This document shows, one piece after another, positions 7,289 to 61,464 of a stretch of 64,000 nt of DNA. The notes below the pieces were generated by a model. It was given only the letters and a program-made list of their open reading frames with translations, was not told where the DNA came from and made no database searches. This DNA is from a virus. Lineage: Duplodnaviria; Caudoviricetes. The stretch lies in the IMG/VR virus record IMGVR_UViG_3300036762_000188; one strand, 5' to 3'. The stretch's first letter is position 1, and each line of letters starts with the position of its first letter. The translations under genes were made by a program, and so were the position numbers.

Positions 7289-7583
7289 GAAATGTAACAC
7301 GTTTGTAACACCATAATTCCAGCAATGGCGTGGCTTTTTCTTGATTTGTTACAAAAAAACATTGTTACATAAAATAATACACATACTATGAGAGAGAGAG
7401 GAAGAGGGAGGAATGTATATATAAATACACTATATAAGAAAAGTGTGTTTTTATATATAGGCCTCTCCCTCTCTCATAGTATGTGTGTGTTCTGGTGTTT
7501 CTGTGTTTTCTGTAACGACTCCTCCCCAGCCCGCATAGAAGCTAGGATCCGGCGTTACACGGGTGTTACAGGAATTGTTACAG
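7271..7583 (+). repeat. 313-bp origin-like element, copy 1
   Basis: About nine GTTAC/GTAAC iterons, an 18-bp inverted repeat (7379-7396/7469-7486) and an AT-rich core; inverted copy at 35606-35918. Confidence 0.9.
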
Positions 7584-35605: not shown

Positions 35606-35918
35606 CTGTAACAAATCCTGTAACACCCGTGTAACGCGGGATCCTAGCTTCTATGCAGGCTAGGGAGGAGTCGTTACAGAAAACACAGAAACACCGGAAC
35701 ACACACATACTATGAGAGAGGGAGAGCCTTATATATAAAAACACACTTTTCTTATATAGTGTATTTATATATACATTCCTCCCCCTCCCTCTCTCTCTCA
35801 TAGTATGTGTATTATTTTATGTAACAATGTTTTTTTGTAACAAATCAAGAAAAAGCCACGTCATTACTGAAATTAGGGTGTTACAAAAGTGTTACATTCC
35901 AGGATGCTTTTGTAACAG
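35606..35918 (-). repeat. 313-bp origin-like element, copy 2 (inverted)
   Basis: Reverse complement of 7271-7583 with scattered substitutions. Confidence 0.9.
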
Positions 35919-56854: not shown

Positions 56855-56887
56855 GGGTACCCCCTCTTACTTAAAAAGAGGGGTTTA

Positions 56888-56897
56888 GTTATAAACA
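56888..56897 (+). promoter_or_regulatory. GTTATAAACA motif variant ahead of the poly-Ubl gene
   Basis: Intergenic, after a CCCCTCTT/AAGAGGGG hairpin. Confidence 0.45.
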
Positions 56898-56942
56898 TAT
56901 TGTAAGGGAACTTACGATCTCCAATATTTAAAGGAACATTAA

Positions 56943-58034
56943 ATGTCTAATACTATCGTTAATATCCCAGGCCGTGAATCACAAACTCTTACTGGTATGG
57001 TCCTGAGCGAGAAGGAAGTTCGCGACGCGTACGCAGGTGTGATCGACCTCGGTTCTTACGTAGCCACTACAACTAAATCTGGAGATGATACTATTATCAC
57101 CTTCGCTAACCGTACTGGCACTAAAGGTGCTGATACTATCGTTAATATCCCTGGTCGTGAGTCTCAGACCCTTACTGGTATGGTCTTGAGCGAGAAAGAC
57201 GTCCGTGACGCGTACGCAGGTGTAATTGACCTAGGCTCTTACGTAGCTACAACTACTACTTCAGGCGGTAACACTGTTATTACCTTCGCTAACCGTACTG
57301 GCACTAAAGGTGCTGATACTATCGTTAATATCCCAGGCCGAGAATCCCAGACTCTTACGGGTATGGTCCTGAGTGAGAAAGACGTCCGCGATGCTTACGC
57401 AGGTGTGATTGACTTAGGCTCTTACGTAGCTACAACTACTACTTCAGGCGGTAACACTGTTATTACCTTCGCTAACCGTACTGGTACTAAGGGTGCCACT
57501 GCAGTGATTATTGATGGTGTCCAGGTCCTGTCTACTCCGGTAGATATGGATGAAGAGGATGTGCTGGATATCCTTGAGTCGGGCGCCTTTGGCGATGTCA
57601 CTGACTACGAGTATACTACTCAGGAAGTAGGTAATACTACCTTCATGACTTTCACCCCAGTTATGGGTGAACTCGAGGCTCTTTTAAATAAGAACAAGCC
57701 TGTAGATTTGAAGGCCCTATTACTGCAAGGGCTAGTTGATAGTGACTCTTCAGACTTAGAGGAAGATGAGGGTGAAGACTATTATTGTTTTGATGAGTTT
57801 GATGAGTTTGATGAAGGCGAGGAGGACGAAGACGAGGTAACCTCTACCGAAGTTATCATCGACGGTATGACGCCTCGTGTTCTACAGGGCATCATAATGG
57901 ATGCTAGTATGCTGATCGCAGCTTACCGTGACACTATTGACTTAAGCCAGTATGTAGCAGAAGAGCGTGTGCAGGGCAGTGTACTTAAGGTATATTTTAC
58001 AAAACGCCAAGGTGCTAAAGGTGCCCTGGCGTAA
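56943..58034 (+). CDS. polyubiquitin-like precursor (PRTRC protein C-type Ubl repeats)
   Basis: Three 61-aa units ending TFANRTGTKG, a divergent fourth unit, an acidic linker, and a fifth unit ending FTKRQGAKG-ALA; adjacent E1/E2/JAB genes. Confidence 0.8.
   Translation: MSNTIVNIPGRESQTLTGMVLSEKEVRDAYAGVIDLGSYVATTTKSGDDTIITFANRTGTKGADTIVNIPGRESQTLTGMVLSEKDVRDAYAGVIDLGSYVATTTTSGGNTVITFANRTGTKGADTIVNIPGRESQTLTGMVLSEKDVRDAYAGVIDLGSYVATTTTSGGNTVITFANRTGTKGATAVIIDGVQVLSTPVDMDEEDVLDILESGAFGDVTDYEYTTQEVGNTTFMTFTPVMGELEALLNKNKPVDLKALLLQGLVDSDSSDLEEDEGEDYYCFDEFDEFDEGEEDEDEVTSTEVIIDGMTPRVLQGIIMDASMLIAAYRDTIDLSQYVAEERVQGSVLKVYFTKRQGAKGALA
56946..57494 (+). repeat. three tandem 183-bp coding repeats
   Basis: Unit boundaries at 57128/57129 and 57311/57312; differences are mostly synonymous. 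Confidence 0.95.
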
Positions 58035-58040
58035 TTAAAT

Positions 58041-58062
58041 AAGGGGCTTCGGCCCCTTTTTT
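58041..58062 (+). terminator. intrinsic terminator after the poly-Ubl gene
   Basis: AAGGGGC-TTCG-GCCCCTT plus T run. Confidence 0.88.
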
Positions 58063-58079
58063 ATTAAGGGTATTTTAAG

Positions 58080-58601
58080 ATGGATTTTAGATCTTCTTGC
58101 ATGGCAAGAATACGCACTCTATTAGAAGAGTACGGTTCTACTAACGGATTACACCTACCAATCGGAGCTATAAATAGCACTTTAGGTTATATAGGGCCTT
58201 CAGGAGGCGTCTCTAATAATAATAATAGATTAATTTACTTAATGGTGGGCGCCTTGACAGAACCTGCCAGTTATAACCACTGGCTTTTAAATGGCAGATC
58301 TATACCTATATATCTAGAGCATAACGCTAGTGTATGTATAGGCGTAGTGAGTGGGTATAGAGAACAGTTAATGGAGCAGCTCGAAAGGCTACATGGGGCT
58401 ACTGTATCTATCGTACACATGAGTGATACAGTGTCTACTGTAAGGATTAGATTTCAAGGAGGAACCCTTGAAGGCGTTATGGCTTCTTTAGTGCAGTTAC
58501 GACAGATTATATCTGATATGGTTCTTAGTGGCAGGGCGTATGGATCTACTATACCTAACGTAAGTTATATGCTAGAGGAGGGTTCACATGGAACTTCTTG
58601 A
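58080..58601 (+). CDS. hypothetical protein in the Ubl locus
   Basis: 173-aa ORF coupled to the downstream operon. Confidence 0.6.
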   Translation: MDFRSSCMARIRTLLEEYGSTNGLHLPIGAINSTLGYIGPSGGVSNNNNRLIYLMVGALTEPASYNHWLLNGRSIPIYLEHNASVCIGVVSGYREQLMEQLERLHGATVSIVHMSDTVSTVRIRFQGGTLEGVMASLVQLRQIISDMVLSGRAYGSTIPNVSYMLEEGSHGTS

Positions 58602-58860
58602 GGCTATACTCGCCGTAGAGTCTAATGTAGCCGCGTCCCCTTTAGACGCAGCCGCAGAAGAGCTAATGACATTAGAAGCCAGGGTCCCTGATATCAGCTC
58701 TATAAGTGAGGTACTGCGCGTATTAGAGCGTGGCAATGACCTGCTTAACACTATCAATAGAGGTCCAGATCGTTACTGGCATAGCACATATAATAGTGTG
58801 TTCAACTTACAAAGGATATTATCCGTACCAACTTGTTCAGCAGGAGTGATTTATGTCTAG
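58588..58860 (+). CDS. hypothetical protein in the Ubl locus
   Basis: GAGGAGG RBS; overlaps both neighbours. Confidence 0.65.
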   Translation: MELLEAILAVESNVAASPLDAAAEELMTLEARVPDISSISEVLRVLERGNDLLNTINRGPDRYWHSTYNSVFNLQRILSVPTCSAGVIYV

Positions 58861-59485
58861 TTTAATTATAAGCATGGACCGTAAGGATATCGTAACCGTA
58901 AAGGATGCTACAGGCAGCCACTTGAAAACTATGTCGGTAACGTCATTTATAAACCTGCTTAAAGCCCTTAATCCAGAGGCCGTGGATTCCGTAGGGCGCC
59001 CTATATCCCTTCCTACCAGTATACTTACCATAGCAGGTTCCCCTGCTCTATATAGTATATCTATGTACTTTCCCGAAAAAGAGGCTGTTGTACGGTGTAG
59101 CGGCACTAATTATAACATCGTACTCCCTAATATAGTGCTAGAGATAGACCTGACCGAAGGTCCTGGATGCTGGACTATCACTAGAACTAGATGGATAATG
59201 ACTGACAAGAGCCGGGTTGATTATAAACCTGAGTACGGTAAAGTTCTAGCTATGCCTAACGTGTATAGCGGCGGCAGTATGTGCTACGGCGGTAACGCAC
59301 TACCCGGCAGGATCTACCATGATTGGACTATACTAGATAGCCTGTATCATGATGTATTACTGAAATCTCCATTCAACAATGACCTAGGTGTACCTGGAGT
59401 TGGTGCAAGTGCCGACGACTGGTTAAAAACCCTTAGCGATCGCCGACTTAACGGTGATAAATTCCCATATGAAAGATTCTTCTGA
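58853..59485 (+). CDS. prokaryotic E2-like protein (Prok-E2_D/PRTRC protein B type)
   Basis: LPNIV, MPNVYSGGSMCYGGN with candidate catalytic Cys, SPFNNDL. Confidence 0.8.
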   Translation: MSSLIISMDRKDIVTVKDATGSHLKTMSVTSFINLLKALNPEAVDSVGRPISLPTSILTIAGSPALYSISMYFPEKEAVVRCSGTNYNIVLPNIVLEIDLTEGPGCWTITRTRWIMTDKSRVDYKPEYGKVLAMPNVYSGGSMCYGGNALPGRIYHDWTILDSLYHDVLLKSPFNNDLGVPGVGASADDWLKTLSDRRLNGDKFPYERFF

Positions 59486-59492
59486 GGCTAAT

Positions 59493-60566
59493 ATGTCTAT
59501 TATCATAAACCCTATTACTACCGTGTTACTTAATCATACAGAAGTGGATGACCCTAAGTACAATCACTTCATGTTCAAATATGTGCTGGAGAAGGACCTG
59601 ACGTTAACTAGTACGTCTGTCATGACCGGTGGACGGTTTATCAAGAAGTACATAGCCAACCTGGCCGGTAAGAAACTACCTGCCGACGAGATACAGCCAC
59701 TAGTTAACGGGGTTAAGATCCCTATCCTCATCATGCATCAGATCCATAAGTTCTTCATTGATGTTATGAAATTGCATTCTGGCAGTGAAGCGCAAGCTTT
59801 TGTGGTCATGAGAGACGGTGAGTACAAGATATTAATCCCTGAGCAGACAGTAAGCGGGGCTGCTGTAACCTATGACCTGACTAAGGAATTATTACCGGGC
59901 GATATTATAGTTATGGATATACACTCCCATAACTCTATGGCTGCGTTCTGGTCCGGTACAGATAACCGTGATGATAGTAAGAATACATGGATCTCTGGAG
60001 TATTCGGCAAGGTAAATACTAAGCTGGAGTATAAGTTCCGCTTCAGTGATGCTACAGGGTCTCATTATGATCTTGACATTAAGGACGTCTTTGAAGAGGC
60101 TGCCGAGGTATCGATACCTGCAGAGTGGGTATCTAATGTAAAAAAGTCGGTACTCTCACGAGCGCCTATAAGCAATTACCCCGGGTTATACCGAGGCCCT
60201 TCGAAGCCGAAGAAGTGGAAGCAGAGCCCGGGCTCTTTAGAATGGGTTGGTGGAACAGACTATTCAGAGGATGATCTATCCTTAGATACAATGATCACCT
60301 CTCTAGAAGATGCCTTAGTGGAGGACGAGTTGGTAGATATAATGACAGACATGATCGACCCGTATGCAGGGGATCGCCTAATGGTTAGTAAGGTACTGTC
60401 TAGTCTGGAAAACGCCTTCAGTGGTAACGGTAATATAGACGTATCGTTCCCTATAGGTGCCGAGAACCTATTCCATAAAACTCACACTGTATTATCAGGA
60501 TATGGTACCGATAACAGTACCATACTGACGTCACTAGCTACCGTAAAGGGTATGTACAATGTTTGA
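59493..60566 (+). CDS. JAB/MPN+ metallopeptidase (PRTRC protein A type) with C-terminal extension
   Basis: E...PEQTVS...DIHSHNSMAAFWSGTDNRDD fits ExnHxHx7SxxD; start MSIII after GAGG. Confidence 0.9.
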   Translation: MSIIINPITTVLLNHTEVDDPKYNHFMFKYVLEKDLTLTSTSVMTGGRFIKKYIANLAGKKLPADEIQPLVNGVKIPILIMHQIHKFFIDVMKLHSGSEAQAFVVMRDGEYKILIPEQTVSGAAVTYDLTKELLPGDIIVMDIHSHNSMAAFWSGTDNRDDSKNTWISGVFGKVNTKLEYKFRFSDATGSHYDLDIKDVFEEAAEVSIPAEWVSNVKKSVLSRAPISNYPGLYRGPSKPKKWKQSPGSLEWVGGTDYSEDDLSLDTMITSLEDALVEDELVDIMTDMIDPYAGDRLMVSKVLSSLENAFSGNGNIDVSFPIGAENLFHKTHTVLSGYGTDNSTILTSLATVKGMYNV

Positions 60567-61464
60567 GAGAAAATTTGAAAGCATAATATCTACAGTAGTA
60601 GTTATTGGATGCGGAGGTACTGGCTCTCGAGCCATACCTTTGATGGTGCAGATACTTAAGAATAGCCCTCGGGCGTTAGCGCCTCGCTTAGTACTTATCG
60701 ATGATGACGTAGTGGAGCATAAGAACTTAGCACGTCAGAATTTTATCAACCAGGATGTTGGCAGAAGTAAGGCAGAGGTATTGGCCGAGAGGTATTCTGT
60801 TGCAATGGACTTCCCTATTGTATCCAATAAAGCTCGTATATCTGGTAACAATCTCGTAAATGTAGTAGATCAAGCTATGCATGGAAGAGGTTGGCCTTCT
60901 ATCCGTGGTACACATAGTCCTATATTCATACTATGTGTAGATACCATGGAGGCTCGCATGGATATACTAAAACAGTTGCCGGGTGGATCTATTGTAATAG
61001 AGGCTGGTAACGAGGATACCTTCGGTAACGTCACGGTGTTTGACGTAAGTGAATTCCGAGGTGCTAACGAAGCAACTCCATTCTATGGAACTGTGGAGAT
61101 ACCTGTAATACCAGCCCCGGTAGCACGATACGAACATGCATTAAAAAACCCGTCGGTTAAAACGGGTTCCTGTGCAGATTTAGATCAATCTGCTGCCATC
61201 AACAACTTGATGGCCGCAGGGATAAACACTATACTCCAGAATATATCGTATGGTATACCTCTAAGATATCGTACTAAATTCTATGATCTGGCAGGTAGTG
61301 ATCATACAGAGATAATGAACGTACACTGGTATAATCAGGAGTATAAGTGTGCTGGTATAAAAACTGCGATGCCAATGGCACATACGGCTAGGGCTGATGC
61401 TCTGAATCGAGACTTAGCAGCAGCCCGTAAGATACCTAAAGAACTACTTGCTGCTATAGCCTAG
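60559..61464 (+). CDS. ThiF/E1-like adenylating enzyme
   Basis: VIGCGGTGS, IDDDVVEHKNLARQNF, DVGRSKAEVL, CVD....R, GN, GSCAD...Q...IN. Confidence 0.93.
   Translation: MFERKFESIISTVVVIGCGGTGSRAIPLMVQILKNSPRALAPRLVLIDDDVVEHKNLARQNFINQDVGRSKAEVLAERYSVAMDFPIVSNKARISGNNLVNVVDQAMHGRGWPSIRGTHSPIFILCVDTMEARMDILKQLPGGSIVIEAGNEDTFGNVTVFDVSEFRGANEATPFYGTVEIPVIPAPVARYEHALKNPSVKTGSCADLDQSAAINNLMAAGINTILQNISYGIPLRYRTKFYDLAGSDHTEIMNVHWYNQEYKCAGIKTAMPMAHTARADALNRDLAAARKIPKELLAAIA

Follow-up and report, generated by a model that had tools for sequence, protein, structure and literature searches.

To our knowledge, the bacterial systems for conjugating ubiquitin-like proteins (Ubls) that have been characterised, namely Bil, type II CBASS and Bub, are all host-side and act against phages. 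Operon type 6d, a further class described by Iyer, Burroughs and Aravind in 2006 (PMC1779556), brings together a Ubl, an E1, an E2 that lacks the HPN histidine, a JAB peptidase extended by an additional N-terminal domain and a partner protein that evolves fast. The PRTRC (ParB-related, ThiF-related) cassette, described by the models TIGR03734-03741, appears to be the same operon, and our search of the full-text literature found neither a functional study of PRTRC or type 6d nor a publication in which a phage encodes E1, E2, JAB and Ubl as a cascade. Here we describe such a set in the IMG/VR virus record IMGVR_UViG_3300036762_000188, a stretch of 64,000 nucleotides (hereafter, the window) in which six genes, all on the + strand, occupy positions 56943-61464. 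Sequence comparison indicates that this locus probably encodes an intact ubiquitin-like conjugation cascade, distantly related to PRTRC and type 6d, ParB-less, and carried as a core module by a clade of virulent-type phages of about 170-190 kb.

The open reading frame (ORF) list of the window agrees with the first-pass annotation of this region, since all six co-oriented ORFs were found where it had placed them (Table 1) and the repeat ends and E2, JAB and E1 motifs that it quoted are all present in the translations. The window is phage DNA, its other genes including those for tail fibres, a baseplate wedge protein and the large subunit of the terminase. For each of the four core parts the nearest family is PRTRC, with every match to a PRTRC model being either under the curated cut-off or indirect, by way of orthologues or profile comparison. 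The E1 is recognised by the Pfam ThiF model (50.4 bits, cut-off 28.1), and PRTRC_ThiF (TIGR03736) tops its 15 NCBIfam matches (E=2.7e-18; 66.2 bits, cut-off 144.75); its best match by sequence among solved structures is MccB (1.2e-7, N-terminal part only). PRTRC_A (TIGR03735) is the sole NCBIfam match of the JAB protein (E=4.5e-16; 59 bits, cut-off 101.8), and the Prok-JAB model lies barely above its threshold (25.6 bits, cut-off 25). The E2 is placed through its orthologues, 12 of 16 matching Prok-E2_D (PF14460; best E=5.4e-10) and 10 of 16 PRTRC_B (TIGR03737), these being E-values taken irrespective of curated cut-offs. Neither E2 nor JAB retrieved a useful relative when compared by sequence with solved structures.

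Placement of the Ubl required a comparison of profiles. Single Ubl units of the window and its relatives had no match to PRTRC_C (TIGR03738) or Prok_Ub at E<=10, and TIGR03738 found nothing in five clade genomes. A profile of 19 phage Ubl units, however, aligned end to end with PRTRC_C-like Ubls taken from other viral contigs (hhalign probability 96.9%, E=2e-10, 59 columns); this alignment, the PF14454 Prok_Ub domain precomputed for ten two-unit Ubl homologues and a common [RK]-x-G-T-K-G tail together provide the link to PRTRC_C and Prok_Ub. Scans with Pfam and NCBIfam detected no ParB among the six genes or their neighbours, in keeping with the first-pass annotation, and the same holds for five complete or near-complete clade genomes, in which ParB_N gave no match while control genomes did. 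As to the PRTRC_D and PRTRC_E partners, TIGR03739 gave no match in five genomes, but here the controls were silent too. The 29 proteins collected from positions X and Y, between the Ubl and E2 genes, match no PRTRC model at E<=0.5. Given the sub-cut-off or indirect matches, the lack of ParB and the failure of X and Y to match a PRTRC_D or PRTRC_E model, the phage set is, as far as sequence can tell, a distant, ParB-less sister branch of PRTRC and not a strict member; the initial assignment to the PRTRC type thus holds for the nearest family of all four parts and not for membership in the strict sense.

Related gene sets were seen elsewhere among viral contigs. In three contigs of 142-206 kb outside the clade of Salmonella phage Arash (see below), a JAB and E1 pair is preceded at a distance of about 3.5 kb by small genes ending EKAGTKG, KLGDKG or KRAGEKG (L029, 3383-3833, with two such genes in tandem; L039, 3200-3412; L081, 3899-4081), suggesting that related cassettes occur in additional lineages of large phages. 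Some smaller viral contigs have PRTRC-like cassettes too (L085, 1372-2001; L086; L087); there, the Ubl domain ending K[KR]AGTKG forms the N-terminus of a longer protein, which in L085 continues into a CxxC...CxxC zinc-ribbon-like tail; these Ubls would need to be cut free as well.

The system is widely retained among the relatives of this phage. Within 50,697 phage records, megablast of the locus gave no match, the only isolates with a terminase of more than 50% identity were Vibrio phages D69, D148 and D181 and Salmonella phage Arash, and relatives of the E2 were confined to these same four. When used alone as a query of viral contigs, the E1 found no relative, whereas an E1 alignment retrieved 24 IMG/VR contigs with close E1 relatives, the complete-looking ones being 165-183 kb long. 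With D69 and Arash these make up 26 loci, and the synteny check across phage genomes that the first-pass annotation had proposed left the gene order Ubl-X-(Y)-E2-JAB-E1 unchanged in 26/26. Orthologues of E2 and JAB share only 23-38% identity with the proteins of the window. A search of IMG/VR anchored on the terminase, and hence independent of E1, yielded 37 contigs in which the sequence upstream of the terminase gene extends for 7.5 kb or more; the system is present in all 37, with E2, JAB and E1 within this flank in 35 and the E1 further off in the other two. Across system-carrying contigs, terminase identity falls to about 40%. Because every terminase-anchored contig carries it, the system is universal in the sampled clade and constitutes a core module, not an accessory island. 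An E2 profile matched 746 cluster representatives among 1.84 billion (202 at E<=1e-30), and a search of 185,579 species genomes for two E1 signature peptides gave just two distant relatives, a count limited to those patterns. The description of the carrier as a lytic phage fits these results, the only related isolates being of virulent type and the distant E1 relatives in species genomes numbering two.

The position of the module is also constrained. In 22 loci the Ubl gene is immediately preceded by a divergent terminase gene, whereas in the window the two are separated by nrdAB and small genes. Family models confirm the reported adjacency to nrdAB, with nrdA and nrdB directly upstream of the Ubl gene (Ribonuc_red_lgC, E=6.5e-99; Ribonuc_red_sm, E=3.3e-45). 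At its other end the operon converges on conserved genes that are labelled 'structural' in the Arash record. As to gene content, several of the loci L017-L025 (e.g. L019, 6301-6923) contain two or three extra ORFs of 56-97 amino acids (aa) between JAB and E1, of which the window has none.

Such universality bears on the possibility that the cascade serves counter-defence, whereby it would interfere with Bil or type II CBASS, or tag and disarm defence proteins, with the JAB protein stripping tags attached by the host. Bacterial E1/E2/Ubl systems are antiviral, Bil being known to tag a phage tail protein (PMC11601596), and tags of such systems could be reversed by a phage JAB; one weak match of the E1 to the anti-phage 6A-MBL cap2_3 protein (NCBIfam) points in the same direction. 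Anti-defence genes are, however, usually patchy in distribution, while here the genes keep a fixed order and are retained in 37/37 contigs down to about 40% terminase identity. Moreover, a deconjugase alone could strip tags, making a full cascade with an amplified Ubl (described below) unnecessary, and neither the Ubl nor the E1 is of Bil type, the latter being a single adenylation domain of 301 aa compared with the tandem domains of BilD. As anti-defence genes are rarely universal, we rank this role below virion and host targets, both considered further on, and regard it as unlikely.

The enzymes of the set retain the signatures of their families. In the E1, the motifs GCGGTGSR, NLxRQNF, CVD and SCADL are invariant in three orthologues, as are residues G17-G22, R59, Q60, D128 and C205; resemblance to the family suggests that these include the nucleotide loop, a Mg-binding Asp and, in Cys205, the thioester cysteine. 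The JAB protein has E112 followed by H157-S-H159, x7, S167, x2 and D170, all invariant in 14 orthologues, as well as an extra N-terminal domain of ~95 residues with an invariant Arg61 and a C-terminal tail that is variable. Its gene likely starts at ATG 59493 and not at GTG 59454, judging from a GAGG ribosome-binding site and the N-termini of orthologues. The E2 carries MPNVYSGGSMCYGGN (consensus PNxYxxGxMCxGxN), in which Cys144, Asn136 and Gly146 are invariant and Pro133 almost invariant in 16 orthologues, the alignment of which shows F or M where the His of HPN would be. On the basis of its PN...C spacing, Cys144 is presumably equivalent to the canonical E2 cysteine. An AlphaFold2 (AF2) model of the E2 (predicted local distance difference test, pLDDT, 82) consists of a helix at 29-39, strands within 57-117, the Cys144 loop and helices at 158-170 and 187-199, an order of elements which, in the model, matches the ubiquitin-conjugating (UBC) fold. 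When the model was compared with 48,161 chains using VIA-align, the top 26 were all of the UBC family, UbcH10 being first (Z 6.0, root-mean-square deviation 3.9 A over 121 residues).

Two features of individual relatives deserve mention. In Vibrio phage D69 (OZ195729.1; locus L001, 7001-7978), the E1 frame can be read from about 6980 onward and includes the GCGGTGSR loop, yet it contains no ATG, GTG or TTG before residue 75, and the record annotates a truncated protein of 251 aa that lacks the nucleotide-binding loop; translation probably begins at a non-canonical start or is coupled to that of the JAB gene. In L011 (4487-6929), and also in L014 and L016, the JAB gene is interrupted within its catalytic motif, between ...DIHSH and NTMGSFFSATDDRDD, by a 1.1-kb insert with a 290-aa ORF on the opposite strand that contains the LAGLIDADG-like motifs FIAADGC and YHDGDGC. 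From its sequence, this insert looks like a homing-endonuclease element or intron placed at the most conserved site of the gene.

The Ubl gene encodes a multi-unit precursor. Tandem Repeats Finder reports a 183-bp repeat at 56950-57496 (3.0 copies, 88% matches), and units 2 and 3 have the same protein sequence but differ at 16 codons, every change being synonymous, which argues that the repeat is old, under strong purifying selection and no assembly artefact. At every one of the 26 loci the Ubl gene ends TG[TNA]KG, with the stop codon immediately behind it in most single-copy genes, suggesting that this Gly is the working end of the protein and that multi-unit precursors are cut there. Relatives have 1, 2, 3 or 5 units per gene; a wider search recovered 46 multi-unit Ubl proteins, one of which has the design of the window, in which a unit without the motif and an acidic linker precede a capped final unit. 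Since unit 4 lacks the cleavage motif, a di-Ubl with an acidic linker is the predicted product of the distal part. The AF2 model of unit 1 (from a 19-sequence alignment; pLDDT 86.5) is beta-beta-alpha-beta-beta, with strands at 3-7, 14-17, 39-46 and 49-56, a helix at 23-30 and a low-confidence, flexible RTGTKG tail at the C-terminus. The best 50 chains found with VIA-align are mostly beta-grasp proteins, among them MoaD, ubiquitin, SUMO, ISG15, NEDD8, FAT10 and GB1, with Z of only 3.5-5.5; the modelled unit is thus consistent with a minimal beta-grasp, the weakness of the match being as expected for 62 residues. In the record of Salmonella phage Arash (OQ632216.1; locus L002), the annotated 72-aa ORF gp251c (102-320) is in the wrong frame for the Ubl, which is encoded in an overlapping frame (107-307, 66 aa, ending RRTGTKG-stop), so that searches against the deposited proteome would miss it.

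The synonymous-only divergence of the units, together with the invariant motifs and the retention in 37/37 contigs, led us to reject the idea that the locus is a decaying remnant. The same precursor is relevant to a further explanation, according to which the Ubl would be a sulphur carrier like ThiS or MoaD. As in the CysO and QbsE pathways, the E1 would adenylate it, it would become thiocarboxylated and the JAB protein would trim it, and it would feed a phage thio-modification of a nucleotide or cofactor. JAB proteins are known to pair with sulphur-carrier Ubls in other pathways, MoaD chains are among the matches of the Ubl model (VIA-align Z 4.3-4.9), and secondary matches of the E1 include ThiF, MoeB and TcdA. 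Against this, a UBC-fold protein with an invariant Cys is conserved at every locus, the operon has no rhodanese, cysteine desulphurase or sulphur-acceptor enzyme (Pfam, NCBIfam), the tail is G-x-K-G and not the GG of ThiS and MoaD, and a catalytic carrier would need no precursor of 3-5 copies. Conserved E2 and multi-copy precursor together make a sulphur-carrier role highly improbable.

Conjugation is the reading that we favour for the set, and several results weigh against it. Both models match known folds only moderately well (E2, Z 6.0; Ubl, Z 4-5.5), and Foldseek searches of the PDB returned nothing significant for either. The E2 of the window itself reaches only E=0.12 against Prok-E2_D. 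Finally, biochemistry on this system or on any PRTRC system is absent from the full-text literature that we searched.

Signals around the Ubl gene suggest how its expression may differ from that of the enzymes. The motif TGGTATAA lies 55-100 nt 5' of the Ubl start in 18/19 relatives, and the window has at this place AGTTATAA, a one-base variant of TGKTATAA. TGKTATAA occurs at 21 sites in the window (e.g. 30698, 52659 and 3319), compared with 8.5 +/- 2.9 expected from shuffles, and TTTATGKTATAAR, a perfect longer form, is found in both divergent intergenic regions beside the tail-fibre and terminase genes. The claim that a variant of the phage's own promoter motif precedes the Ubl gene accordingly survives both the comparison with relatives and the test for enrichment. 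We take TGGTATAA and TGKTATAA to resemble an extended -10 element, and a motif of this type is the putative Ubl promoter. Among candidates drawn from the window by itself, TAWAACATATT and TGTTAGTTM were dropped for lack of enrichment and TTTATGKTATAAR was only weakly enriched; the motif was found instead by comparing relatives. Downstream of the Ubl gene, a GC-rich hairpin with a T-run is present at the same position in 19/20 loci. Flanked by a conserved promoter motif and a terminator, the Ubl gene looks like a separate, strongly expressed unit of its own, with the enzyme genes supplied via read-through. From X to E1, neighbouring genes overlap or almost abut, which is compatible with translational coupling.

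Table 1. Positions of the genes, precursor parts and putative expression signals of the locus in the window.
Feature	Position	Strand	Description
Terminator-like hairpin closing the nrdAB unit	56861..56883	+	CCCCTCTT-loop-AAGAGGGG then TTT, 8 pairs
Putative Ubl promoter and leader	56884..56942	+	AGTTATAA, then TGTAAGG, then AAAGGAA ribosome-binding site
Poly-Ubl precursor	56943-58034	+	363 aa
Ubl units 1-3	56943-57128, 57129-57311, 57312-57494	+	61-residue units, each ending RTGTKG
Ubl unit 4	about 57495-57677	+	Strand pattern kept, without GxKG
Acidic linker	about 57678-57848	+	Very acidic, after unit 4
Ubl unit 5	57849-58022	+	Ends GAKG
ALA cap, three residues	58023-58031	+	After unit 5
Intrinsic-terminator-like hairpin between Ubl gene and enzyme genes	58041..58064	+	AAGGGGC-TTCG-GCCCCTT then TTTTTT
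X, orphan protein	58080-58601	+	173 aa; position conserved, sequence not
Y, small orphan protein	58588-58860	+	90 aa; stop overlaps E2 start
E2-like conjugating enzyme, Prok-E2_D / PRTRC_B type	58853-59485	+	210 aa; predicted catalytic Cys144
JAMM/JAB metallopeptidase	59493-60566	+	ORF open from GTG at 59454 (59454-60566, 370 aa)
ThiF-type E1, single adenylation domain	60559-61464	+	301 aa; predicted thioester Cys205

Taken together, these features suggest the following scheme, every step of which is deduced from sequence and comparison. The Ubl gene would be transcribed from its own TGGTATAA-type promoter and most transcripts would end at the hairpin behind it, read-through feeding the coupled X, Y, E2, JAB and E1 genes, so that the tag would be made in large excess over the enzymes. 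The JAMM peptidase would cleave the precursor after each G-x-K-G and take off the ALA cap, releasing three 61-residue Ubls and one di-Ubl (unit 4, acidic linker and unit 5). With ATP, the E1 would adenylate the freed C-terminal Gly and then load it on Cys205, from where the Ubl would be handed to Cys144 of the E2 and on to lysines of target proteins through isopeptide bonds; the same JAMM peptidase could undo the tag. X and Y might serve as specificity or adaptor factors.

A gene of 173-413 aa occupies the X position, between Ubl and Y or E2, in 26/26 loci, and a gene of 80-104 aa the Y position in 22/26, with a C-terminal [FY]V in common. Neither X nor Y matches a family in Pfam, NCBIfam or PHROGs, and in the ESM Atlas they retrieve only unnamed clusters or scores below 0.9. 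The X of the window is as remote from the X of relatives (hhalign probability 0.1%) as from the same-position proteins of PRTRC-like loci (0.1%), the latter having no NCBIfam match themselves.

What the tag is attached to can be proposed with less assurance. Our best guess, a tentative one, is that the targets are virion or assembly proteins of the phage itself, a view favoured by the core-gene status of the module, by its fixed site between the terminase and the convergent genes and by the supply-heavy Ubl gene. In a more specific and more doubtful version, the Ubl would be a consumable building block, Ubls and the acidic di-Ubl being ligated late in infection to virion or assembly proteins for decoration, cross-linking or an assembly checkpoint; if true, the clade would be the first known bacterial viruses in which morphogenesis depends on a self-encoded Ubl conjugation cascade. 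In the Arash record the E2 and E1 homologues are labelled 'structural protein'. This label denotes a protein detected by mass spectrometry in a particle preparation, and the same preparation also contained ribonucleotide reductase, primase, ligase and helicases (PMC10585845). Because these replication enzymes are present, we rejected the labels as proof of a virion location and take them to show that the operon proteins are made.

Supply of the Ubl in excess would also suit the mass modification of many targets in the host, and phage ADP-ribosyltransferases and kinases modify host proteins in a comparable way. An active cascade could thus serve host takeover by tagging host proteins in bulk, thereby inactivating, relocating or destabilising them. 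The extended -10-like TGGTATAA could be read early by a sigma-70-type holoenzyme, and conservation as a core module fits an essential takeover function. Hosts of the clade nonetheless range from Salmonella to Vibrio and the E2 and JAB orthologues are only 23-38% identical to those of the window, so that a common host target would need to be strongly conserved, and a fixed site among packaging and structural genes is atypical of early takeover genes. We hold bulk tagging of host proteins to be possible but questionable, and prefer virion or assembly proteins as the targets.

Elsewhere in the window, a stretch of ~200 bp recurs 28 kb away in inverted orientation (7289-7510 and 35680-35900). Each copy lies in a long intergenic region and contains internal palindromes and several TGTAAC/GTTACA repeats.

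The locus shares parts of its design with several known systems. Eukaryotic polyubiquitin is likewise made of head-to-tail units with a short cap that must be removed, is released by peptidases and has identical units that diverge synonymously. The phage precursor repeats this arrangement (head-to-tail units, short cap, identical units with synonymous divergence and, by prediction, peptidase release) but differs in its junction, G-x-K-G then A as opposed to GG then M, in having linkers at part of the junctions and one unit without cleavage motif, which predicts a di-Ubl, and in its putative processing enzyme, a JAMM peptidase from the same operon. A polyubiquitin-style precursor encoded with its peptidase offers a small model for Ubl processing. 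Among phages, the lambda-type tail pair also combines a beta-grasp domain (tail assembly protein I) with a JAB-NlpC/P60 protein (K) amid structural genes (Iyer et al. 2006); it has no E1 or E2, however, and its Ubl forms part of a tail assembly protein instead of being a free modifier with an activatable Gly end.

Of the host-side systems, Bub (type 6E / DUF6527) is a diverged bacterial ubiquitination-like pathway in which the Ubl is also freed from a precursor by an operon peptidase, and BubB is among the weaker matches of the E2 model (VIA-align Z 3.7); Bub nevertheless uses other E1, E2 and peptidase families, is chromosomal and is linked to defence regulators. Cap2/Cap3 of type II CBASS have a fused E2-E1 that conjugates a cGAS-like enzyme, and no separate Ubl. 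The phage set, in contrast, has E2 and E1 as separate genes and a dedicated Ubl gene, and Pfam and NCBIfam scans of its genes detected no nucleotidyltransferase. Bil (BilABCD) resembles it more closely in that Ubl, E2, JAB and E1 are separate proteins in both, and Bil is known to conjugate its Ubl to a structural protein of a phage (PMC11601596). Bil is host-encoded and anti-phage, whereas here the phage itself owns the complete cascade, which has been kept as a core module across deeply diverged relatives. BilD, furthermore, has tandem domains (PMC11601596), unlike the single ThiF domain of the 301-aa phage E1, and no part of the phage set matched Bil-type models, the nearest families being those of PRTRC.

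With the PRTRC cassette the phage set has in common a ThiF-type E1, a JAB protein with an extra N-terminal domain, an E2 of the Prok-E2_D type without the HPN His, a small Ubl and additional uncharacterised partner genes in the operon. The Ubl tails are similar as well, those of PRTRC_C-like Ubls ending K[KR]AGTKG and those of the phages R/K-TG-T/N-KG. Public records label the phage genes 'hypothetical' or 'structural', and in that of Arash an overlapping ORF in another frame is annotated in place of the Ubl gene. Since the clade includes cultured members, namely the three Vibrio phages and Arash, for which S. Typhimurium ATCC 14028 serves as a plating host, it provides an experimental way into a class known from sequence since 2006, whose function thereby becomes accessible to standard phage genetics and proteomics. 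The two sets differ in that the phage one has no ParB, PRTRC_D or PRTRC_E, that its X and Y are unrelated to the same-position proteins of PRTRC-like loci, and that its Ubl is often a cleavable multi-unit precursor. Their carriers differ too: PRTRC resides on a plasmid or integrative element, whereas the set described here is a core module near the terminase gene of large virulent-type phages.

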